Below the pieces are notes generated by a model that was not told where the DNA came from, searched no databases, and saw only the letters and a list, made by a program, of their open reading frames with translations. 64,000 nucleotides of DNA from Vermiphilus pyriformis (GTDB lineage: Bacteria > Babelota > Babeliae > Babelales > Vermiphilaceae). The stretch spans positions 570,267-634,266 of the forward strand of contig CP074345.1 in NCBI GenBank assembly GCA_022559525.1, written 5' to 3'. A program made the translations under genes and the position numbers. Position 1 is the stretch's first letter. Each line of letters begins with the position of its first letter. Shown piece by piece: positions 1,499-29,629 of the stretch.

Positions 1499-1790
1499 TG
1501 TTGATCCTCTTTAGGGTAGATACGTAATTTCCAAATAGATAAAAGTTTACACATAAGAAAATTAAAAGATAGGTATAATCCATTATAATAACGGGCTATA
1601 TATAAAAATATCTTACAAATGTATTATAATTTTAATATAAAATACACAAACTGCAAACTCCGTCCTATACTAGGCTATTGGAAAAAGCTAAGATATATAA
1701 ATTCTTACGATTATAAAATAAGAGCAAAAGTAAATATTGACAATTATCTATACTCCATTTGAATACATTTTTAACAAGGTACACAAAAAT

Positions 1791-4163
1791 ATGCGCTCTC
1801 AGTTATTTCTATTATATCTATTGGCAAATACAAGCCATTATATACATGCAATGCAGGCCGAACACCTTGAATATGCCTTTAGCAGATGGGACGAGCAGTT
1901 ACATCTTGCTCAAACACGCTTACAGTCGAACTTAGAGAAATCACTTGATACTCTCTTGAGCATAGATGGGAACAATTTTGCATCTTTTCAGAAAGATATC
2001 ATACCGTTACTTAAAACTATACAACGTGATATTAATGTAACATTCAAGCCTTTTATGCAACATATACATGTACCTAAACAGCATAGAGACGCTTGCACAC
2101 AAGTATTAAATGTTATATCCGATAGACTTACCACATGCATTACGCATCTTGCTCGATCAACTTCCACTACCTCTTACAACTTACCAGCATTGCACAAATA
2201 TTTGATTAGATCATTATTTTTTATCTATCACTCTTTTTTTACTATCGTATCAGAGCAACAACCAGGTTATTTTCAAAACTTTACTCAACTTATACATGCT
2301 GCGCGCGCAATACAAAACGAAATTTTTCCAGACAATACTACTCTTAAGGATGCTCTTGACACTCAAATGAATGATCATGAATCTGAACGTATTGTTGCAT
2401 GTAAGATCAGACAGCTTACCCAAGTTTTGCAAAATACTATACTCTCCATTGAAGCCTATTATTTTTGTACTGAAAGCAATGCAGACGAGTATACTGATCC
2501 AGATATTAAACTTATTAATTCACAGCTAGATACTCTTAAGATATTTGAACAAACATTTACAGGTTTTTATGCATGCCCACGCACAACGCATCAGGTACAT
2601 GAATTTCTTGAACAATTTGCACAAGGTATATTATTTATACAACAGCGCTTAAGCTCTGTTATTGAAAAAAAACGTCTTGATCTTACAAATTCTCTTGAAT
2701 TTATAGAATCTCGAGAAAAACTTAGTGTATCTGACGCGCTCATAGTATTTGCCAATTATAGGAAGAATATATCAAAAGATACGAATACATGGCTTGCAAG
2801 CACACTCAACGGATTTTCTATTCCCGCACTACCTACAATACCCAATCCATTTCAAGCAGTAACAGAAATGGGCGCTTCGGTTGCAAACCAAATAGGAGAA
2901 CCTATATTGGAAGCTACTTCACACATATTACAAACAACACATCAATTGGCAGCTCATATAAGCACCATTTTTAAAAATTTACCTGACCAATTACATCACA
3001 TAGACAGTATTCAAGAAGGCAATAGCATCAGCAGCAAACTCTCACATTACATTATAAATGTAGTCAAAAAACACCTTCTTGCTGCCACAAATAGTACCTT
3101 AAGTAGTACGGCTGATATAGTGATGGAATTTGCTAACACTTGTACAGTTTTGGCAGAAACAGCAGAGCGTTTAAAAGACTACTGCCACAACACACGTTTA
3201 CCAGAAATTGCTGGTCTTGACAAAGCTATAGTAAACAAATGTCTTGCTTTTGTAGGGCTACGCCACTTAGAAAAAATAACTATCCTGTCAAAAGAATATA
3301 ATCCTTTTCTTTCTATTTCTACTCTTTACAATTATATGCTTGCTCAACAGAAACATGGTAATAATTTGCCATGTATACCTGCTAGCATAATTAATCTAAT
3401 GCCTAGCCAATTTGTATCACAATATACAAAAGACCTTGCGCCTGTACTTGCTACATGGGAACAATTATACAATGATGAAAAAGCAGTCATAGTTAATAAT
3501 TGTAAATGCATATCGCCAGACGTACTAGAGCACATATCATCTTCTTTACAAGATCATGAAAATATAAGTAGAACTATGGTTGAAAACCTATATTCCTTTA
3601 TTTGGGCTACCCGCAATCACATTGCACAAGAAGAGACAGGGCGTTATGTTACAAATACTCAAAATCACTGGCAGAGTAAATTGTTAGAAAACAATGAAGA
3701 AATTAAAAAATTAAAAGATTCAATAAAGGATTTACAAAATGATCATGATCTTATTAAGTTATCATGGAAAAATTTGTGGCTTGGAGGAATTTTAAAGCGC
3801 TATTATATCAATGCTCAAATGGACCAATTGGACAAACAACTTCAAGGGTTTGAATCAATAGGCACAACTATTACTAATAACCTTGAAATTATAGCAGAAT
3901 GCGCACAAAGTATTGCGCAAAAAATAAAAGCTGCACATTTTCTGCTTACAACACTCAAAGGTAATGTTGCATGTTACAATTATTTGCCCAACATAAGCGC
4001 TATTATACAGACGCTCACTGACAAAGTAGATTCTTCTTTTTCATTATATGGAGCGCCTTTTATAAATCAGAAATATAATAATTTGTCAAACAGTCTCATC
4101 GGTTCAGTATATTCACAAAGTGGTTTTGATGTAGACGGAGACAGCAGTGTTGCTTTACAATAA
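1791..4163 (+). CDS. large secreted protein of unknown function (about 790 aa)
   Basis: Long uninterrupted ORF (track 1737..4163). The internal ATG gives MRSQLFLLYLLANTSHYIHA, a signal-peptide-like start. I recognised no domain. Confidence 0.7.
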   Translation: MRSQLFLLYLLANTSHYIHAMQAEHLEYAFSRWDEQLHLAQTRLQSNLEKSLDTLLSIDGNNFASFQKDIIPLLKTIQRDINVTFKPFMQHIHVPKQHRDACTQVLNVISDRLTTCITHLARSTSTTSYNLPALHKYLIRSLFFIYHSFFTIVSEQQPGYFQNFTQLIHAARAIQNEIFPDNTTLKDALDTQMNDHESERIVACKIRQLTQVLQNTILSIEAYYFCTESNADEYTDPDIKLINSQLDTLKIFEQTFTGFYACPRTTHQVHEFLEQFAQGILFIQQRLSSVIEKKRLDLTNSLEFIESREKLSVSDALIVFANYRKNISKDTNTWLASTLNGFSIPALPTIPNPFQAVTEMGASVANQIGEPILEATSHILQTTHQLAAHISTIFKNLPDQLHHIDSIQEGNSISSKLSHYIINVVKKHLLAATNSTLSSTADIVMEFANTCTVLAETAERLKDYCHNTRLPEIAGLDKAIVNKCLAFVGLRHLEKITILSKEYNPFLSISTLYNYMLAQQKHGNNLPCIPASIINLMPSQFVSQYTKDLAPVLATWEQLYNDEKAVIVNNCKCISPDVLEHISSSLQDHENISRTMVENLYSFIWATRNHIAQEETGRYVTNTQNHWQSKLLENNEEIKKLKDSIKDLQNDHDLIKLSWKNLWLGGILKRYYINAQMDQLDKQLQGFESIGTTITNNLEIIAECAQSIAQKIKAAHFLLTTLKGNVACYNYLPNISAIIQTLTDKVDSSFSLYGAPFINQKYNNLSNSLIGSVYSQSGFDVDGDSSVALQ

Positions 4164-4230
4164 ATACACATTGGATTAAGTTCTATAGTAGGTAACACTC
4201 TCAAGAATTCTATACTAAACGTATCGGTAA

Positions 4231-5673
<1,443 letters not shown>

Positions 5674-5687
5674 AAAGGTAGTATTGT

Positions 5688-5930
5688 ATGCTGTTACGAT
5701 TAATAGCTCCGCTTGAAATCAAAGAATATGAAGTAGAGTGGTGTGAAATTACTACTGAGTATGGAAGCAGAACTATTTTTTCAGGACATGCGCCTATGAT
5801 TTTAGTAATTAAGCCAGGAAGCATGCTTCGCTTTGGCGCACAAGACACATCATTGGGTGAAGAGCTTATTGGTCAAGGCATTGCTCATATTACTCGCACC
5901 ACCCTTACTATACTGCGCAGTATCTTATGA
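5688..5930 (+). CDS. atpC: F1 ATP synthase epsilon subunit, N-terminal beta-sandwich only (80 aa)
   Basis: It lies immediately after atpD. The pattern TTEYGSRTIFSGHAPMILVIKPGSM matches epsilon (eGe.giL.gHaP....L.pG). The usual C-terminal helical hairpin is absent. Confidence 0.8.
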   Translation: MLLRLIAPLEIKEYEVEWCEITTEYGSRTIFSGHAPMILVIKPGSMLRFGAQDTSLGEELIGQGIAHITRTTLTILRSIL

Positions 5931-7534
5931 GCGATATGTTAGGCACAGTGATTTCAGGTTCTTTGCAAGAAGGACTCTTGGTAAGATTTGCATCACATGT
6001 CAGACTTGCTGATATCAGTACTGGTACTTTTATGTGTATACGCACACAAAACAGTACTTTTGTATGTGTGGTAGCAGATTTAAGCTTGGCTACCAGCTCT
6101 CCTGAAATTGCACAACGCCCACCGGTATCAGCTTCTAGTTTATTAGCTCGCACACTGAGTGGTTATGATGTTTATGCGACTGCTTTACTCAAACCATTAG
6201 TCTGTCTCAATTTGCAGTCTATACCTATGCCTGTCAAAACACTGCCGGATCATTTCAGCCCCGTGTACTATGCAAGTGCTGAAGACATTGCACATATTTT
6301 TGGTAGCGAACAAGATACTCAAAAAACTTATTTTTCAATTGGTACGCCGCTTGATATGAACGTACCCGTATGCATTGATCTTGCAAAATTAAGTGAACGA
6401 AGCAATGGAATATTTGGAAAAACAGGAACAGGAAAAACTTTTATCACACGTTTGGTACTTGCAGGTCTTATCAAGCATGAGCAAGCAGTTAACATTATAT
6501 TTGACATGCACAGTGAATACGGACTTCAAGCTCGTACTGAGCAAGGTGGCGGGTCTTTTGTAAAAGGCTTACGTACACTATTTGGCGCTAAGGTTGCCAT
6601 TTTTTCTTTAGATCCGATATCAACTCGTCGACGCGGTGCCCAACCTGATGTTGAACTTAAACTCACCTATCAATCTATTAGTGTTGAAGATATTTTAAGT
6701 TTGGCACACGAACTCAATCTTCATAGCACTGCTCTTGAAGCTGCATATTTAATTCATGCACGTTACAAGCGAGATTGGCTTGCGGTACTCTTGGCACAAG
6801 ATGATATAAAAACTTTTGCAACCAGTATTGGCGCGCACCCTGAATCAGTAGCAGCATTATATCGAAAACTTAAAAGAATTGAGCGCTTGCCATTCTTTGT
6901 GCCAGCTCAAGAACCTTATAGCACTCAAGATCATACCGTTATCGATCATATGATGGAATATATTAGTAGAGGTATTAGTATCATTATTGAATTTGGTAAC
7001 TATACTTCAACTTTTGCTTATCTCTTGATTGCAAATATTATTACTCGACGTATTCATGCTGAATATGTTGAGCGAACTGAACTATTTCTTGGTACAGGCT
7101 TGGAAAGCGATCGGCCACGTCAACTTATGATTACTATTGAAGAAGCACACAAATTTTTAAATCCAGCTGCAGCTCGACAAACAATTTTTGGCACGATTGC
7201 ACGAGAGATGCGTAAGTATTATGTGTCACTTCTCATCGTAGATCAACGGCCATCAGGTATTGATCCTGAAGTGCTTTCACAAATAGGTACCAAAATTATT
7301 GCACAATTGAACGATGAACGCGATATTGCAGCTGTTCTTATGGGAATGCCCAATTCAGTGCATTTACGTACTATATTGGCAACTCTTGAAACAAAGCAGC
7401 AAGCACTGGTCGCAGGGCATGCAATTGCAATGCCTATAGTAATTAAAACACGCCCTTACGATACTCAATTTTATAGTGATATAGCGCCTGATATTATACC
7501 AACTACTCGTCAAGCAATTGACCAACTTTATTAA
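5927..7534 (+). CDS. HerA/DUF87-like P-loop ATPase (FtsK-HerA superfamily)
   Basis: Walker A GKTGTGKTF, a Walker-B-like LLIVDQRPS, IEEAHKF, and an N-terminal barrel-like region. Its start ATG overlaps the atpC stop (ATGA). Confidence 0.75.
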   Translation: MSDMLGTVISGSLQEGLLVRFASHVRLADISTGTFMCIRTQNSTFVCVVADLSLATSSPEIAQRPPVSASSLLARTLSGYDVYATALLKPLVCLNLQSIPMPVKTLPDHFSPVYYASAEDIAHIFGSEQDTQKTYFSIGTPLDMNVPVCIDLAKLSERSNGIFGKTGTGKTFITRLVLAGLIKHEQAVNIIFDMHSEYGLQARTEQGGGSFVKGLRTLFGAKVAIFSLDPISTRRRGAQPDVELKLTYQSISVEDILSLAHELNLHSTALEAAYLIHARYKRDWLAVLLAQDDIKTFATSIGAHPESVAALYRKLKRIERLPFFVPAQEPYSTQDHTVIDHMMEYISRGISIIIEFGNYTSTFAYLLIANIITRRIHAEYVERTELFLGTGLESDRPRQLMITIEEAHKFLNPAAARQTIFGTIAREMRKYYVSLLIVDQRPSGIDPEVLSQIGTKIIAQLNDERDIAAVLMGMPNSVHLRTILATLETKQQALVAGHAIAMPIVIKTRPYDTQFYSDIAPDIIPTTRQAIDQLY

Positions 7535-7591
7535 AAAGTACCTAAATTCTAGAATTATTGTATATGCTAGGTATCAAATTAGGGAGATAGT

Positions 7592-9133
7592 ATGAGATAC
7601 TATAGTAAGTATATTATATACATGCTAGTAACATGCCAACTTAATGTACACAGTATGGAGCATGAGCTAGAACAAAATAAGCCTTCTCCTACTTCTGATT
7701 TATCTAGTATGGTCCTCGCGTTAAGTCCTTACACTCAAGCCGTACGAGAAGCAATACAAAATGATAATGTATCGCAAGTAGATCAACCCCTTATTGCCAT
7801 AAGTCAAGCATGCTCAATTTTCGGCTCATACAATTATCTTCATATTGCAGCAGAATATGGTTCAGTTAACGTAGCTAAATGGCTTATAAATACACATAAT
7901 TTCGATGTAAATCGTCAAACAAGTGATGACGAACAACTAACTCCGCTTATGATAGCAAGTAGTAAAAATCATAAAAAATTTGTTCATTTTCTTATTGATG
8001 ATATTAATATTAATCCCTTAAAAATTGATACGCAAGGCATGACTGCACTGCACCACGCATCAACAATTTATAGTGCTGCAAGTTTTAAAAGGATTGTAGT
8101 AAAATTTCCACAACTACTATATATTTCAGATAATTTGGGTAGAAATGTAACGCATCTTATTGCACAAAGAAATGCTCGAGACCTTTTAAAATTTATTTAT
8201 AAAAATATTTATGAAAATGAAAAGTTTGTAAATATCGCCCAACAGCATCCATGGATTGAGTATATTAATCAAAATTCGGGAAAAGATCCTAAATATCCAG
8301 GCTATACTCCCTTATTGTATGCTCTGGCTACATGCCCTACTGACCTTGATAAAAGCCTGTCAGGTACTGATAGTTTATCAGGCTCAGGTTTTTCGGGAAT
8401 AGAAGGTGAACGAGCTTTCAGAGCTACCCGCACAAAAACAATAGCATGGATTTACAAGCATGGCGGTAATCCTTACAAAGCAGCTACTTTATTCAAGGAA
8501 ACAGAACTTGCTGATTGGCCGCTATACCTTGCAATGCAAACAATGGATCATGAGTTAATATTATGCGTAGTCAAACAAATGATCGACTACAAAGAAACAA
8601 AAAACTTTCTAGTAACCAACGGCCCAGGCAAAGACATTTTAAGTTATAAGCCTAAGCAGGGCAAGGATTTATGGCAATGGGTAGATGAACAAAATCGTCC
8701 CGATCTTATACAATATGTCATTAATAAACTAGCAGAAAAATACCAAGTTGAATGTCCGTCATGTAGCCTTGAAAGCAAAACCTCAAACCCAAATACTCCC
8801 CGCTCAAGTCAAGATTTTGAAAACATTAATAATATAAATTATAATAACCCCCTTATTTTAGGTCCCAATGATCTTACAATCACAAGCTCTCAATGTGGAC
8901 ACTTTATTTGTATTAAGTGTAAAAAAGACTGGGTAGAGCGTAGTATAAAAAACAAAAGTAAAGAATGCCCTACATGCCCGGTATGCCGTGCCCCTTTAGA
9001 ACACTTTGAATTTGAGGGCTCTGGGACTGAACTCACCTTGTGGAAACCCAATAAAATAGTACCTAAAGGTAGCCCTCCTCAGTCGCACCATCCTGAGTCA
9101 GAAGATAGTAAAAAGAACTGTAGTATACAATAG
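7592..9133 (+). CDS. ankyrin-repeat protein with a C-terminal RING-type zinc finger (putative E3 ubiquitin-ligase-like effector)
   Basis: There is an AGGGAG RBS upstream. ANK repeats include YLHIAAEYGSVNVAKWLI, LTPLMIASSKNHKKFVHFLI and MTALHHAS. The C-terminal CPSC-x43-CGH-x2-C-x2-C-x15-C-x2-C-x2-C follows the C3HC4 pattern. Confidence 0.8.
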   Translation: MRYYSKYIIYMLVTCQLNVHSMEHELEQNKPSPTSDLSSMVLALSPYTQAVREAIQNDNVSQVDQPLIAISQACSIFGSYNYLHIAAEYGSVNVAKWLINTHNFDVNRQTSDDEQLTPLMIASSKNHKKFVHFLIDDININPLKIDTQGMTALHHASTIYSAASFKRIVVKFPQLLYISDNLGRNVTHLIAQRNARDLLKFIYKNIYENEKFVNIAQQHPWIEYINQNSGKDPKYPGYTPLLYALATCPTDLDKSLSGTDSLSGSGFSGIEGERAFRATRTKTIAWIYKHGGNPYKAATLFKETELADWPLYLAMQTMDHELILCVVKQMIDYKETKNFLVTNGPGKDILSYKPKQGKDLWQWVDEQNRPDLIQYVINKLAEKYQVECPSCSLESKTSNPNTPRSSQDFENINNINYNNPLILGPNDLTITSSQCGHFICIKCKKDWVERSIKNKSKECPTCPVCRAPLEHFEFEGSGTELTLWKPNKIVPKGSPPQSHHPESEDSKKNCSIQ

Positions 9134-9272
9134 ATTTTTTGTAAAACTATCTATATATAATAAAAAATTGACAAATATGAAAAAATAAATATACTTATAC
9201 TATACTATCATTACAAAAGTCCTTACAGTCACTATACTATAATTTTATCTATAAGCAGCGCTCTATTTATTA

Positions 9273-9300
9273 TTGACAAAGTGAAAATATAGGGTATACT
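9273..9300 (+). promoter_or_regulatory. sigma70-like promoter for the 9334 gene
   Basis: TTGACA, a 16-nt spacer, TATACT, about 34 nt upstream of the ATG. An AAAGAGG RBS precedes the start. Confidence 0.4.
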
Positions 9301-9333
9301 CATTTGATATAACAACATTAAAAAGAGGTTATT

Positions 9334-10542
9334 ATGATACGTACAATACAAAAATGTATAGGCATGATAGTGCTTATAACATGTACTATGAGTGGAGCTG
9401 AAAAAACTATTTTTCGCAACTCTAATATAGCAAAATTTAGCTACAACAGACCTGAGCTTAAAACAAACTTAATTGTAGGTAATGGTCCTATTGCAGCAGC
9501 AGTTGCTAACCTACATAGATCAAATAGCAGCTTTTCAAGCTTTCTAAAAGTTTTGAGTATAGTTACATGGGGTGCGTTTAAACATATTTACACTACACCT
9601 GTAAAAGATGAAACTCCTGTTCTACAATCTGAGCACTCTCAAGTACAAGTTGTAGAGCCTATAGAGCTTTCTCTATCATTTTCGGATGATTTGATTGGTG
9701 CATTAAATAGACGTGATTTCAATACAGCATTGAATTTAGTCAAGCATCCGTCAGTTACTGAAAATATTGTTAATAAACTTAACAAATTAGATCTTACTCC
9801 ATTGTGGTGTGTTGTAGGCACATTTTGTTGCTCTGATGATGAAGAAAAACAGTTACTTGAAGTTGTAAAAGCACTTATTGATAAAGGCGCACAAGCAAAC
9901 TATGTGTTTAGTAAGAATAAAAATGATATAACTCATAATGCATTCGTCAACGCATGTAAAGCAGGAAATATCTTAATTGCTGAATATCTGTACAAAGTAA
10001 TATATCCGTATGGAGTACTCATTGATATCGGTGAGAAGTTATATGACAACAATATGCTGAGCAATTTGCTTACTGAGACTATGAATAGCTATGCAGGTCA
10101 GCAAGGAAGCTTTAGAGAGATATACAAAAAAAGTAATGCTGGTAAATCTTTAACTAGCGTTCAAATTGACAAGATTTTTGAGCAACGCATGGCGCCTGTT
10201 ATTGAATTTTTGCTTGAAAAAATATGTTATTCAAATACCTTGCCTGTTATCAATATAAATAGCCTCCGTTCTGACGGCATGGGAGGCAGAATAAATTTCT
10301 CAGCTTTAGATCTTACACGTATGCTAACTAAAATAAACAGTGATGGAACAATACAAAAATTAGATCTTATTGAAAATATTTTACTCAAACATGGTGCAAA
10401 AGAAAAAGATCTTAATAGCTTGGAAAGCAGTATTCCTGATTTAGGGGATCCTAATCATGAAGCAGCGCCTCAAGTTACTGTAGTACCAGGATTTACAGAA
10501 ACTTTGACGTCAGCGCTTGATGGATCATATCATGGAAATTAA
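9334..10542 (+). CDS. secreted ankyrin-like repeat protein
   Basis: Signal-like N-terminus, with ANK-like units LEVVKALIDKGAQANYV, NACKAGNILIAEYL and LIENILLKHGAKE. Confidence 0.6.
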   Translation: MIRTIQKCIGMIVLITCTMSGAEKTIFRNSNIAKFSYNRPELKTNLIVGNGPIAAAVANLHRSNSSFSSFLKVLSIVTWGAFKHIYTTPVKDETPVLQSEHSQVQVVEPIELSLSFSDDLIGALNRRDFNTALNLVKHPSVTENIVNKLNKLDLTPLWCVVGTFCCSDDEEKQLLEVVKALIDKGAQANYVFSKNKNDITHNAFVNACKAGNILIAEYLYKVIYPYGVLIDIGEKLYDNNMLSNLLTETMNSYAGQQGSFREIYKKSNAGKSLTSVQIDKIFEQRMAPVIEFLLEKICYSNTLPVININSLRSDGMGGRINFSALDLTRMLTKINSDGTIQKLDLIENILLKHGAKEKDLNSLESSIPDLGDPNHEAAPQVTVVPGFTETLTSALDGSYHGN

Positions 10543-10561
10543 GTTTCCTTAAAATACCTAA

Positions 10562-10591
10562 AAGGGACCCTTTAATAAGGGTCCCTTTTTT
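10562..10591 (+). terminator. intrinsic terminator
   Basis: AAGGGACCC / GGGTCCCTT 9-bp stem with an 8-nt loop, followed by a T-run, about 20 nt after the stop at 10542. Confidence 0.75.
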
Positions 10592-16647: not shown

Positions 16648-16899
16648 ATCACCACCTTTAGTTGTAAAAGAAATATATAAAGAATGTGTTAAGAATGTAT
16701 CTTCATTCTATAAGTTTTTATTTTACATTCGCACAAACATTTTCTTTTTACAAATTATTCTAGAACTATTAACAGCATACAAGATCCCGATAAAAACAGC
16801 TTACATACATTATAAAGCAATGAAATTTATCAATTTGTTACAATTTGAATTTTATGATATACTATAAATAATCCACAAAAGAAGTTGGGAGGAATATGT

Positions 16900-18147
16900 A
16901 TGGAAAAACGATTTCCTGACGCTCCTGGGGTATATTTCTTCAAGAGCACAGATAATAAAATTATATATATTGGCAAAGCAAAGTCGCTTAAAAACCGTCT
17001 TAACACCTATTTTGTTAAAAATAATAAGGATTGGAAGGTTCTTGCGCTATTGGAAGAACACGCAAGCGTTGAATGGGTTTTGACGACAACTGAAATCGAG
17101 GCTTTGTTGCTTGAAGCACAAATGATTAAAGAACATCAGCCAAAATACAACGTACTTTTAAAAAATGGCCAGCCATTTATATATATTATGTTCACAAAAG
17201 CCGATCTGCCGGTTATTCAACTTGTACGTAGTAAAAAAGATAAAGGCACTTATTTCGGTCCTTTTTTGCATAAGAATGATGCTCGTCAGGTTTATTATTT
17301 CTTAAAAGAGACATTTAAACTCTCAATGTGCAACAAAAAAATTGCCAATGGATGCCTTGATTATCATTTGGGCAGATGTGCGGGCAGTTGTAAAAATGAA
17401 TTTAGCGACCAAGATTATAAATTTAGAGTAGAGCTTGCAATTGATGCGCTATCCTATGATCACCAAAGTTTTATTACAAAACTTAAAGAAAAAATAGCAG
17501 AACATAGCAAGAGCTTTGAATTTGAAAAAGCGCGTACATTATCTCGTTATGTCGAGGGCATGGAAACTATATTTAAAACCATTAAAGTAAAATTTGATCA
17601 GAGTAAGTTTGCAGATCAATTAATTACTGTTACCAGTCCAGTAAAAAGCCCGAGCCAAACACCTGAAAGCGCTCTGCATTTACAAGCATTACTCGGCACT
17701 CCAACTCCTGTTGTTACTGTTGACTGTTTTGATATCTCACACTTTCAAAGCAGCTCTATTGTAGGTTCTTGTGTACGATTTACCAATGGGGTGCCTGAAA
17801 AAAATAAATTTCGTAAATTTAAAATACGCTCACTAATCGAGCAAAATGACTATGCAGCTTTGCAAGAAATTATAGCGCGTCGATATAAGAACGGCGATAT
17901 ACCCGATCTTATCTTGATTGACGGAGGCAAGGGACAACTATCTGCAGCACGAGCAGTAATGCCTGATGCACAGATGATTAGTTTAGCCAAACGCGAAGAG
18001 ACTATTTTTGGAGCCCAATTTCCTGAGGGCAAAAAACTCGATCTCCACAATCCTGCCGGTGCTCTTCTTATTGCATTACGTGACTATGCACATCATTTTG
18101 CTATTAGTTATCATAGATATCGCCGCTCATCACACCTGAAATCTTAG
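16900..18147 (+). CDS. uvrC: UvrC-like excinuclease subunit, short form lacking the C-terminal (HhH)2 domain
   Basis: GIY-YIG motif GVYFF...IYIGKAKSLKNRL, a UVR-like FEFEKARTLSRY, and the endonuclease core FDISHFQ...LILIDGGKGQL. A GGAGG RBS precedes the ATG at 16900 (track start 16885). Confidence 0.85.
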   Translation: MEKRFPDAPGVYFFKSTDNKIIYIGKAKSLKNRLNTYFVKNNKDWKVLALLEEHASVEWVLTTTEIEALLLEAQMIKEHQPKYNVLLKNGQPFIYIMFTKADLPVIQLVRSKKDKGTYFGPFLHKNDARQVYYFLKETFKLSMCNKKIANGCLDYHLGRCAGSCKNEFSDQDYKFRVELAIDALSYDHQSFITKLKEKIAEHSKSFEFEKARTLSRYVEGMETIFKTIKVKFDQSKFADQLITVTSPVKSPSQTPESALHLQALLGTPTPVVTVDCFDISHFQSSSIVGSCVRFTNGVPEKNKFRKFKIRSLIEQNDYAALQEIIARRYKNGDIPDLILIDGGKGQLSAARAVMPDAQMISLAKREETIFGAQFPEGKKLDLHNPAGALLIALRDYAHHFAISYHRYRRSSHLKS

Positions 18148-28450: not shown

Positions 28451-29626
28451 TTGGCAATCCTTTTTTATGTTATTCATACAGTCTGTGTGTTGCACACGTT
28501 ACTAAAACAAGATAAACCTACGCGTGAAAGGCAAAAGGAACTTTTGGTGAAACATCCATTTTGGATATTAAACAACGTACTTCTTATACTGTGCATTGTA
28601 ATATTCTTTTTTATTATGTTTGGCACAAAAAAACTTCCACGTCCTGTTGAGTTGTCGATACCTACTCAAACTGTAGCACCTACTCGACAGAATATATCCC
28701 ATATTCCACTTGAGAAAATTTATCAAGATGATCTTTTTGGTACATACAGTGTACCACCTCCTCCTGCAGTGGTAGCGCGAGACATTCCCGCACTTCCAAC
28801 ACCTCCCTTTCCACAGGGACCTAAGCCTATTCAAGAAGCTACGCTTCAATTCTTAGAACCTTTGAATGTCACACTTAAAGGGATAATTGCATTTATAGGT
28901 GATGACGCTCAAAATAGAGTAATTATTGCTGATAACAAAACTAATCAAGAAAGCAGCTATCGCACAGGTGATAGAATAGAAGATGCTCAACTCTTGCGTA
29001 TATTTACTAATAAAATATTACTTATTCGATCCAACGGACAGCAAGAAATACTTTTCTTGCGCGAACGAGAAGCTCAAAAAGATCCTATTTATGCAATGCT
29101 TGGTGGATGGCAGGAAATTGTGCAAAAGAAATCTGAAAACGAATACACTATTGCACAAGATCAATTTGTAGAACGTGTTAATAATCTTGCACAATTTATT
29201 GATTTACTTGATTTAACAACTGCGTATTATCAAGGTACAATTATTGGTAGTCGCATTGGCATTGTAGTTCCTAATTCGTTAGGAACCGCTCTGGGCTTGC
29301 AAACAGGTGATATTGTTACCAAAATAAATGGTATTCCCGCTACCGGAACAAGTGAGCGGTTTACGATCTATAAAAATATGACAAATGCACGACCTGGAAC
29401 ATCAGTAGAAGTTGAAATCACAAGGGGTTCGCAAAATATTGTATTTACCTATACACTTTATCAGATGAACAAAAGCACACGCCCCGCAGGATCAGTACGT
29501 TCTACTCCTCGAGCGTCAACTCAAGAAGTTTTGAGCGAGCGATATAAATTTGCTCCTACCGAGCAAGGGTTATATCTTAAAGAAAAAGAAGCTATGAAAG
29601 AACATGGCAGACTTATACCCGAGTAG
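28451..29626 (+). CDS. GspC-like inner-membrane protein with a C-terminal PDZ domain
   Basis: N-terminal TM segment (NNVLLILCIVIFFFIMF), a Pro-rich linker, and a PDZ-like GLQTGDIVTKINGIPATG. It lies immediately upstream of a secretin gene. The start codon is uncertain. Confidence 0.6.
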   Translation: MAILFYVIHTVCVLHTLLKQDKPTRERQKELLVKHPFWILNNVLLILCIVIFFFIMFGTKKLPRPVELSIPTQTVAPTRQNISHIPLEKIYQDDLFGTYSVPPPPAVVARDIPALPTPPFPQGPKPIQEATLQFLEPLNVTLKGIIAFIGDDAQNRVIIADNKTNQESSYRTGDRIEDAQLLRIFTNKILLIRSNGQQEILFLREREAQKDPIYAMLGGWQEIVQKKSENEYTIAQDQFVERVNNLAQFIDLLDLTTAYYQGTIIGSRIGIVVPNSLGTALGLQTGDIVTKINGIPATGTSERFTIYKNMTNARPGTSVEVEITRGSQNIVFTYTLYQMNKSTRPAGSVRSTPRASTQEVLSERYKFAPTEQGLYLKEKEAMKEHGRLIPE

Positions 29627-29629
29627 AGC

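Follow-up and report, generated by a model that had tools for sequence, protein, structure and literature searches.

Gene, start codon and ankyrin repeats

The gene described here lies at positions 7592..9133 on the forward strand of a 64-kb stretch of the Vermiphilus pyriformis genome (the window, meaning the whole of the DNA that was analysed; the contig measures 1,123,447 bp). From an ATG start it encodes a 513-residue protein, UNE34919.1, in which ankyrin repeats are followed by a C-terminal segment with the cysteine and histidine pattern of a RING finger. A first-pass annotation, made from the sequence alone, had proposed a eukaryote-like E3 ubiquitin ligase effector of ankyrin-RING design. 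The computational checks reported below are consistent with that candidate, with profile and model evidence for the RING that lies near the accepted thresholds. In the database UNE34919.1 is annotated as 'ankyrin repeat domain-containing protein'. Clustered with it at 90% is KIX85424.1 / A0A0D2GPV5 (J120_00360) from 'candidate division TM6 bacterium JCVI TM6SC1', a copy to which UniProt/UniRef automatically assigns the name 'RING-type domain-containing protein'. No paper discussing UNE34919.1 was found in the literature.

A Shine-Dalgarno-like sequence, AGGGAG (7581..7586, forward strand), ends 5 nt ahead of the ATG at 7592, and none was found in the sequence upstream of either of the alternative in-frame starts, M11 and M22. 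These would give products of 503 and 492 residues and have been chosen by some database gene calls, so that the database versions of 492, 503 and 513 residues differ only in the start call. Because a Shine-Dalgarno sequence precedes only the ATG at 7592, the 513-residue start is favoured over M11 and M22, and residue numbers throughout refer to it.

V. pyriformis is an endosymbiont of the Dependentiae (TM6) that was found as a natural infection of the amoeba Vermamoeba vermiformis; its closed genome of 1.1 Mb has a GC content of 36.44% (bioRxiv 10.1101/2021.04.23.440484), with which the composition of the window agrees. The Dependentiae are obligate intracellular bacteria whose genomes are rich in ankyrin-repeat proteins, and in Chromulinavorax, a related isolate, 78% of the ankyrin proteins carry signal peptides (PMC6561590). 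In another member, Babela massiliensis, genes for secreted deubiquitinases are accompanied by genes for one F-box and one RING finger protein (PMC4378268).

Four ankyrin repeats span residues 78–205 (7823..8206, forward strand) and form a putative substrate-binding module. The presence of clear ankyrin repeats upstream of the finger, as proposed in the first-pass annotation, was borne out for this segment by Pfam, AlphaFold and Foldseek alike. With the whole protein as query, Ank_2 scored 85.1 bits (E = 5e-24, cut-off 27.3) and Ank_4, Ank_5, Ank and Ank_3 likewise exceeded their cut-offs; with residues 78–205 by themselves, Ank_2 was matched at 1.5e-16. The AlphaFold model of the full-length protein contains four helix-pair repeats with predicted local distance difference test scores (pLDDT) of 75–88, and in Foldseek about 160 residues of the ankyrin part match designed ankyrin repeat proteins (DARPins) with a target template modelling score of about 0.8. 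Both the profiles and the predicted fold thus display the tandem 33-residue helix-loop-helix units by which ankyrin repeats are defined, and on these grounds the ankyrin part of the protein is a solid and robust assignment.

The following region, residues 206–385 (8207..8746, forward strand), is predicted to be helical with a Ser/Gly-rich linker at residues 254–272. It was modelled as helix pairs around the linker at pLDDT 30–69, including helical pairs at residues 309–383, and when searched alone it matched no Pfam family and no structure in the PDB. It possibly consists of degenerate ankyrin-like helix pairs.

The probable C-terminal RING-type zinc finger

Residues 386–470 (8747..9001, forward strand) are assigned to a zinc finger of the RING-HC (C3HC4) type from the motif, profile matches, PDB matches and predicted fold. 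The pattern reads C388-x2-C391-x43-C435-x-H437-x2-C440-x2-C443-x15-C459-x2-C462-x2-C465, or in letters C-P-S-C-x43-C-G-H-F-I-C-I-K-C-x15-C-P-T-C-P-V-C, and its order, its spacing and its Asn-rich first loop of 43 residues are exactly as the first-pass annotation had described them. The codons of the motif span 8753..8986, a stretch given in the first-pass annotation as about 8753..8998. Of 13 cysteines in the protein, 8 fall within these 78 residues. When a RING regular expression was run on 20,000 shuffled versions of the full sequence and on 20,000 in which only residues 380–513 were shuffled (134 residues, which keeps the local cysteine density), it matched none of them, and no other match was present among the 187 six-frame open reading frames of at least 60 residues in the window. 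The Cys/His pattern is real and not the product of chance.

The predicted zinc ligands are C388, C391, C435, H437, C440, C443, C462 and C465. Alignments to RING domains put Cys7 and Cys8 at C462 and C465 (CPVCR), and C459 is therefore an extra cysteine. All eight RING-HC ligands occur in the order of the consensus, C-x2-C-x(9-39)-C-x(1-3)-H-x(2-3)-C-x2-C-x(4-48)-C-x2-C. Loop 1 of classical RING domains, between Cys2 and Cys3, holds 9–39 residues, and the only deviation of the present finger is in the length of this loop (43 residues against at most 39). The insertion, residues 392–434 (8765..8893, forward strand), is Asn-rich, modelled as disordered and invariant in 12 strain variants. A PHD finger, a B-box and a zinc ribbon were considered and rejected, since only a RING accommodates both the C-x-H-x2-C-x2-C core and the CPxCR ending, and since models of the RING clan alone score. 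A U-box is not indicated either: the finger has its full set of zinc ligands, Pfam matches at E values up to 1 include no U-box family, and the hybrid model zf-RING_UBOX reaches 14–18 bits, under its cut-off.

The top Pfam matches other than ankyrin all belong to the RING clan. In the full protein zf-C3HC4 scores 19.7 bits (cut-off 21), zf-RING_2 20 bits (cut-off 27.3) and RING_XB3-XBAT31 24.1 bits, and because of the 43-residue loop these models align from Cys3 onward only. Residues 379–513 alone bring zf-C3HC4 to 23.2 bits, over its cut-off of 21. With the loop artificially shortened this model scores 21.0 bits with positions 1–40 of 40 aligned, and zf-RING_2 is aligned over 2–44 of 44; across constructs zf-RING_2 scores 20–23.8 bits against its cut-off of 27.3, and the remaining RING models likewise stay short of theirs. 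The hmmscan check proposed in the first-pass annotation therefore gives clear ankyrin families and a zf-C3HC4 match that passes for the isolated C-terminus and just misses in the full protein.

Searches of PDB sequences with phmmer returned only RING E3 ligases at the top, with RNF4 followed by HRD1, CBL and TRIM32. RNF4 was matched at E = 1e-6 as a tandem construct and at 1.5e-3 as a single domain, and the loop-shortened query, whose eight ligands all aligned, matched it at 1e-8 to 1e-4. Comparison by hhalign with an alignment of ten RING domains, four of them Pfam-annotated, gave a probability of 97%, a result that is not fully independent because the set of RING domains came from search matches.

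In the full-length AlphaFold model, a strand at residues 428–431, a second strand at 437–440 and a helix at 441–453 form the canonical β-β-α arrangement of RING domains at pLDDT 64–89. Modelled with a 14-row alignment of RING domains, the region has pLDDT values of 80–89 at residues 435–474 and 74 at the first CxxC, falling below 55 in the insertion; the RING core of β-hairpin and helix is predicted at pLDDT of about 80–89. The leading Foldseek matches in the PDB and in the viral library BFVD are nearly all RING domains, including TRAF3, RNF4, Rad5, MEX-3C, RNF168, Nse1, HOIP, Doa10, MDM2, Cbl-b, IDOL and Pex in the former and ICP0, PE38 and RING proteins of giant viruses in the latter. Taken over profiles, sequence matches and models, the RING assignment appears consistent but marginal.

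Variation among the 12 strain variants points the same way. Over residues 22–513 there are 33 variable positions, of which 1 falls in residues 388–470 and 32 in the other 409 positions compared (binomial P about 0.02, a simple estimate). The single variable site in the RING region, R450C, is located in loop 2, and among the 12 variants no variation was found at any ligand or in the 43-residue insertion. This suggests stronger constraint on the RING region, with the qualification that divergence among the variants is shallow.

These results also bear on the view that the cysteines are a chance arrangement in the fast-evolving tail of an orphan protein and mark no defined domain. Orthologues are indeed restricted to one lineage, and the mean confidence of the models is low (pLDDT 60–62). 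Against this stand the absence of the pattern from all 40,000 shuffles, the several independent sequence and profile matches that indicate a RING, the confident modelling of the core and the fact that strains vary less in the RING region than anywhere else in the protein, and we find a chance origin barely credible.

Three further residues of the finger align with positions that contact the ubiquitin-conjugating (E2) enzyme or ubiquitin. The RING literature names as such contacts a hydrophobic residue at Cys1+2, an aromatic or hydrophobic one on the helix, a Pro after Cys7 and a linchpin Arg or Lys after Cys8. W447, four residues past Cys6 like Trp408 of c-Cbl, aligns with such a position in alignments to c-Cbl and RNF4. 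P463, next to Cys7, and R466, next to Cys8, align with contact positions of the same two proteins, the latter at the position of the 'linchpin' Arg of RNF4.

Termini, possible export and genomic setting

The N-terminal residues 1–21, MRYYSKYIIYMLVTCQLNVHS (7592..7654, forward strand), contain basic residues (R2 and K6), then a moderately hydrophobic stretch of 11 residues (YIIYMLVTCQL) and then V-H-S. Sec signal peptides have a basic n-region, a hydrophobic h-region and small residues at −3/−1. The segment is a possible Sec signal peptide, albeit an uncertain one judged from sequence: the maximum Kyte-Doolittle value over 11 residues is 1.67, compared with 2.42 for the product of the neighbouring gene at 9334..10542.

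At the other end, the RING is followed by a tail, residues 471–509 (9002..9118, forward strand), that is disordered in the model and carries a basic KK at its end, and the protein terminates in ...SKKNCSIQ. The last four residues, CSIQ (residues 510–513; 9119..9130, forward strand), form a CaaX-like box and a candidate site of farnesylation by the host; this box was absent from the first-pass annotation and is new to the present analysis. Substrates of the CaaX type have a Cys at position −4, two usually aliphatic residues and then a specificity residue; in CSIQ the first of the two, a1, is Ser and thus not aliphatic. CSIQ is invariant in all 12 strain variants. A Cys at −4 occurs in 1 of the 70 open reading frames of at least 100 residues in the window, where Cys has a frequency of 1.18%. 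The parallel with the farnesylated CaaX terminus of Legionella AnkB is at most suggestive.

A cluster of type II secretion or pilus-like genes at 28451..36738 (forward strand), contains a GspC-like gene, two secretin genes and a GspL/PilM-like gene. No other dedicated export machinery was seen in the window, and effectors exported by Sec may take this route. The TM6 genomes have in common a type II secretion system (T2SS) and two copies of gspD (PMC4776705). The two secretin genes of this one cluster lie at 29630..32119 and 34491..36738. The second is split into 34491..35924, encoding the N domains, and the overlapping 35845..36738, encoding the secretin domain, which may reflect a frameshift or a genuinely split gene.

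Searches for relatives returned little beyond the lineage itself. The whole protein matched only 99%-identical copies and proteins similar in the ankyrin part alone. The loop-shortened RING query gave no candidates, and a profile of the RING matches retrieved only four generic eukaryote-like RING proteins, already annotated as such by Pfam. HMMER with residues 380–513 against 1.84 billion representatives gave five matches, three of which are RING or RING-like: the multi-RING protein P0008, the 301-residue P0009 and the 65-residue fragment P0011, all generic matches to the RING region. The remaining two, P0010 and P0007, were rejected as repeat artefacts; P0007 is a surface-repeat protein of 3107 residues with 20 matches to the post-RING tail. 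P0009 has a pair of RING/U-box-like units in tandem, each retaining the second zinc site (C-G-H ... C-P-x-C) and not the first. The resemblance of P0009 to the ankyrin-RING protein runs beyond the RING (APLEHFEFEGSGTELT versus APMDLTEFVEGEEITV), which hints at a shared post-RING element.

A pattern-based scan of the GTDB representative genomes did not find the ankyrin-RING protein, and AtpD was matched there at no more than 63% identity; this negative does not mean that the lineage is absent, the V. pyriformis and TM6SC1 sequences being in NCBI. No viral relative was found in a scan of IMG/VR. By these sequence searches of 5.8 billion clustered proteins, 1.84 billion representatives, GTDB and IMG/VR, then, orthologues are limited to the Vermiphilus/TM6SC1 lineage, and the homologues in other bacteria or giant viruses by which the first-pass annotation had hoped to trace a horizontal origin did not appear in any of them. 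Composition gives no support for recent horizontal transfer, with GC and third-position GC contents (GC3) of 0.361 and 0.267 for the gene and means of 0.375 and 0.268 for the window.

The next gene downstream (9334..10542, forward strand) encodes a 402-residue orphan, UNE34920.1, which had been described in the first-pass annotation as a secreted ankyrin-like protein. Its N-terminus is clearly like a signal peptide; its similarity to ankyrin repeats does not reach the threshold (cut-off 27.3 bits; Ank_2 scores 14.9 bits, E = 0.042), and support for that description is weak. Paralogy with the ankyrin-RING protein was rejected (BLASTP E = 1.5). The 200-bp gap between the two genes, 9134..9333, has two promoter-like sites with identical hexamers, TTGACA-16-TATACT, at 9168 and 9273, and no terminator was found there; a strong bidirectional hairpin terminator with a perfect 13-bp stem follows the second gene at 10560..10589.

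Elsewhere in the window, 58569..59678 on the reverse strand encodes an orphan with weak ankyrin similarity (Ank, E = 3e-4), and many other open reading frames match no family at all. In the region 1737..7534, atpD (4234..5673) and an 80-residue epsilon-like gene (5688..5930) occur without preceding atpA or atpG. An 808-residue open reading frame lacking any family match precedes atpD instead, and the epsilon-like gene shares 4 nt with the beginning of the gene for a HerA-like DUF87 ATPase of 535 residues (5927..7534). Such surroundings are unusual for genes of F1 subunits. A UvrC homologue of 420 residues (16885..18147) matches, in two stretches, approximately the N-terminal half of a UvrC model that has 574 residues; in this reduced genome the excinuclease subunit may have been truncated or remodelled. 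Rfam and tRNA scans of the window were empty.

This setting is relevant to the idea that the protein is not directed at the host and acts instead in the bacterial envelope or cytoplasm, where ankyrin repeats and a finger of the zinc-ribbon or treble-clef type would serve a bacterial function. The host destination is putative, the gene sits among housekeeping genes (atpD, the herA-like gene, argR and an ABC transporter) with GC and GC3 values typical of the genome, and there is a weak match to a treble-clef model, DUF4379, at E = 0.02. The C3HC4 order, the CPxCR ending and the helix Trp are nevertheless specific to RINGs, and it is established that bacteria lack E2 enzymes with which a RING could work. 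The organism is moreover an obligate endosymbiont from a phylum rich in secreted ankyrin proteins, and a CaaX-like C-terminus would have meaning only in a eukaryotic cytosol. A purely bacterial role is improbable in our judgement.

Proposed function and comparison with known systems

The reading that we favour, with moderate confidence, is that the ankyrin-RING protein is a secreted, host-directed mimic of single-chain RING E3 ubiquitin ligases whose ankyrin repeats choose the host target. It builds on features seen in silico, namely the ankyrin fold and the RING-type ligand pattern with its core fold, in a bacterium that lives obligately within its host. From these we infer export by Sec through the N-terminal signal-like segment, followed by type II secretion or release in outer-membrane vesicles. 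In the amoeba cytosol, four or more ankyrin repeats would bind a host protein as the target, and the C-terminal RING-HC domain, predicted to hold two zinc ions in a cross-brace, would recruit a ubiquitin-charged host E2. Catalysis would consist in activating transfer of ubiquitin onto the bound target or onto the ligase itself. Prenylation is conceivable by analogy with Legionella AnkB, in which case CSIQ would be farnesylated by the host and would tether the ligase to a host membrane or to the membrane containing the symbiont. The 43-residue insertion is probably a flexible loop that spares the RING core, and it could modulate the choice of E2.

Several points weigh against this assignment. 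In the full-length protein every RING model of Pfam remains under its gathering score, and in general the curated RING thresholds are reached only marginally. The Foldseek E values of the RING matches are 0.06–7, none of them significant for so small and interrupted a domain, and the AlphaFold model of the RING is partly circular because the RING domains given as input were picked by similarity. Evidence from deep conservation is missing because orthologues are confined to the Vermiphilus/TM6SC1 lineage. With regard to export, a signal peptide would normally have a more strongly hydrophobic stretch than the one at this N-terminus, and the M22 start used by some gene callers would remove the signal-like segment altogether. 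To our knowledge the Dependentiae have no type III or type IV secretion system (T3SS, T4SS), which makes delivery into the host cytosol hard to explain. Within the finger, loop 1 exceeds the classical range by 4 residues, and position Cys1+2 is occupied by Ser390 in place of the usual Ile, Val or Leu. The residue at this position is one of these three in most active RINGs and touches the E2 in RNF4, c-Cbl and BRCA1, which makes Ser390 the chief argument from sequence against full activity.

These last two features, together in one zinc loop, are grounds for supposing that the protein is a secreted ankyrin effector with a RING-like finger that is not catalytic. Such a finger could be a zinc-stabilised interaction module, a trap or inhibitor of E2 enzymes, a partner of host RINGs in the manner of BARD1 and Bmi1, or part of a ligase for another ubiquitin-like modifier. 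The marginal RING profile scores are compatible with this, and non-catalytic RINGs with a non-hydrophobic residue at the Ser390 position are known from the literature. W447, P463 and the linchpin R466 are canonical, however, and the nearest sequence matches, RNF4, HRD1 and CBL, are active ligases, and a non-catalytic finger strikes us as the less probable outcome.

The single-chain ligase reading can be drawn out further, into a self-contained ankyrin-RING ligase that is delivered by Sec and the T2SS or by vesicles, farnesylated by the amoeba at CSIQ and convergent with AnkB as its cullin-independent counterpart, with the loop 1 insertion and Ser390 re-tuning the choice of E2. In all its parts together this version is speculative, and we think it unlikely to hold as a whole.

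The Dependentiae, obligate parasites or symbionts of protists, are widespread and have hardly been studied, and no function is known for any of their many ankyrin proteins. Few proteins of the 1.1-Mb Vermiphilus genome suggest a biochemical hypothesis that can be read from sequence; the ankyrin-RING protein does, its hypothesis being that of E2-dependent ubiquitination with possible host prenylation, and since the host and symbiont are in culture as a pair this hypothesis is testable. If it is true, ubiquitin-ligase mimicry reaches a phylum without classical effector injection systems, which raises the question of how such effectors get to the host cytosol. The general picture would not change, because eukaryote-like E3 effectors are well documented in amoeba-associated bacteria.

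Among these, AnkB of Legionella pneumophila combines ankyrin repeats with an F-box and a C-terminal CaaX motif, whose farnesylation by the host anchors the protein to the vacuole membrane (PMC2916131). The Vermiphilus protein is like AnkB and the ankyrin/F-box effectors of Orientia in joining ankyrin repeats to a ubiquitin-ligase module, in its case a predicted one, in an intracellular bacterium adapted to amoebae or other host cells. The likeness is one of design only, there being no sequence homology, and no F-box family is among the Pfam matches of the 513-residue protein. AnkB is an F-box adaptor that needs the host Skp1-Cul1-Rbx1 complex, whereas the RING of the Vermiphilus protein would bind the E2 directly. 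Delivery differs too, AnkB being a substrate of the Dot/Icm T4SS, whereas for the Dependentiae only Sec and T2SS-type systems have been reported (PMC4776705).

Other bacterial effectors of this general kind are the U-box-like LubX, GobX and RavN and the RING-like Lpg2370 and MavM of Legionella (PMC5819833), NEX1b of Neochlamydia with a RING/U-box and leucine-rich repeats (PMC4209131) and CAHE_p0026 of Cardinium with a putative RING (PMC3486910). Like these and the RING finger protein of Babela, the ankyrin-RING protein would be a case of a eukaryote-like E3 module in an intracellular bacterium, such modules often being fused to repeat domains. In most of the characterised bacterial examples the module is zinc-free and U-box-like or is N-terminal, whereas here a C-terminal zinc-type C3HC4 finger stands behind the ankyrin repeats. 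No sequence relationship to the RING and U-box effectors of Legionella, Neochlamydia, Cardinium or Babela was detected, the sequences not having been compared directly.

In domain order the closest parallels are the plant XB3/XBAT proteins, Mind bomb and viral ankyrin-RING ligases, which share N-terminal ankyrin repeats followed by a C-terminal RING-HC. A viral example is the 'ubiquitin ligase/ankyrin repeat protein' of Feldmannia virus, and a phaeovirus ankyrin/RING protein is among the Foldseek matches. RING_XB3-XBAT31 (PF24921) is also the top-scoring Pfam RING model, with 24.1–28.6 bits over model positions 11–54. Because a score of 24–29 bits is far under the family cut-off of 50, the protein is not a member of XB3/XBAT. 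The ankyrin regions, unlike the domain order, lack specific similarity, and there is no evidence for common descent.

Compared with the eukaryotic RING-HC domains of RNF4, c-Cbl and HRD1, the finger has the same C3HC4 ligand order, the CGH-x-[FI]-C-x2-C core and a predicted β-β-α fold, as well as the Trp that c-Cbl, too, has four residues beyond Cys6, and a CPxCR ending with Arg next to Cys8, as in RNF4. It differs in the 43-residue Asn-rich loop 1, the Ser at Cys1+2, the extra C459 and its bacterial gene, and identity to these RINGs is only about 25–30%. The type of effector and the automatic RING name were thus known already; what is individual to the Vermiphilus protein is Ser390, the CaaX-like C-terminus and the length and Asn-richness of the first zinc loop.

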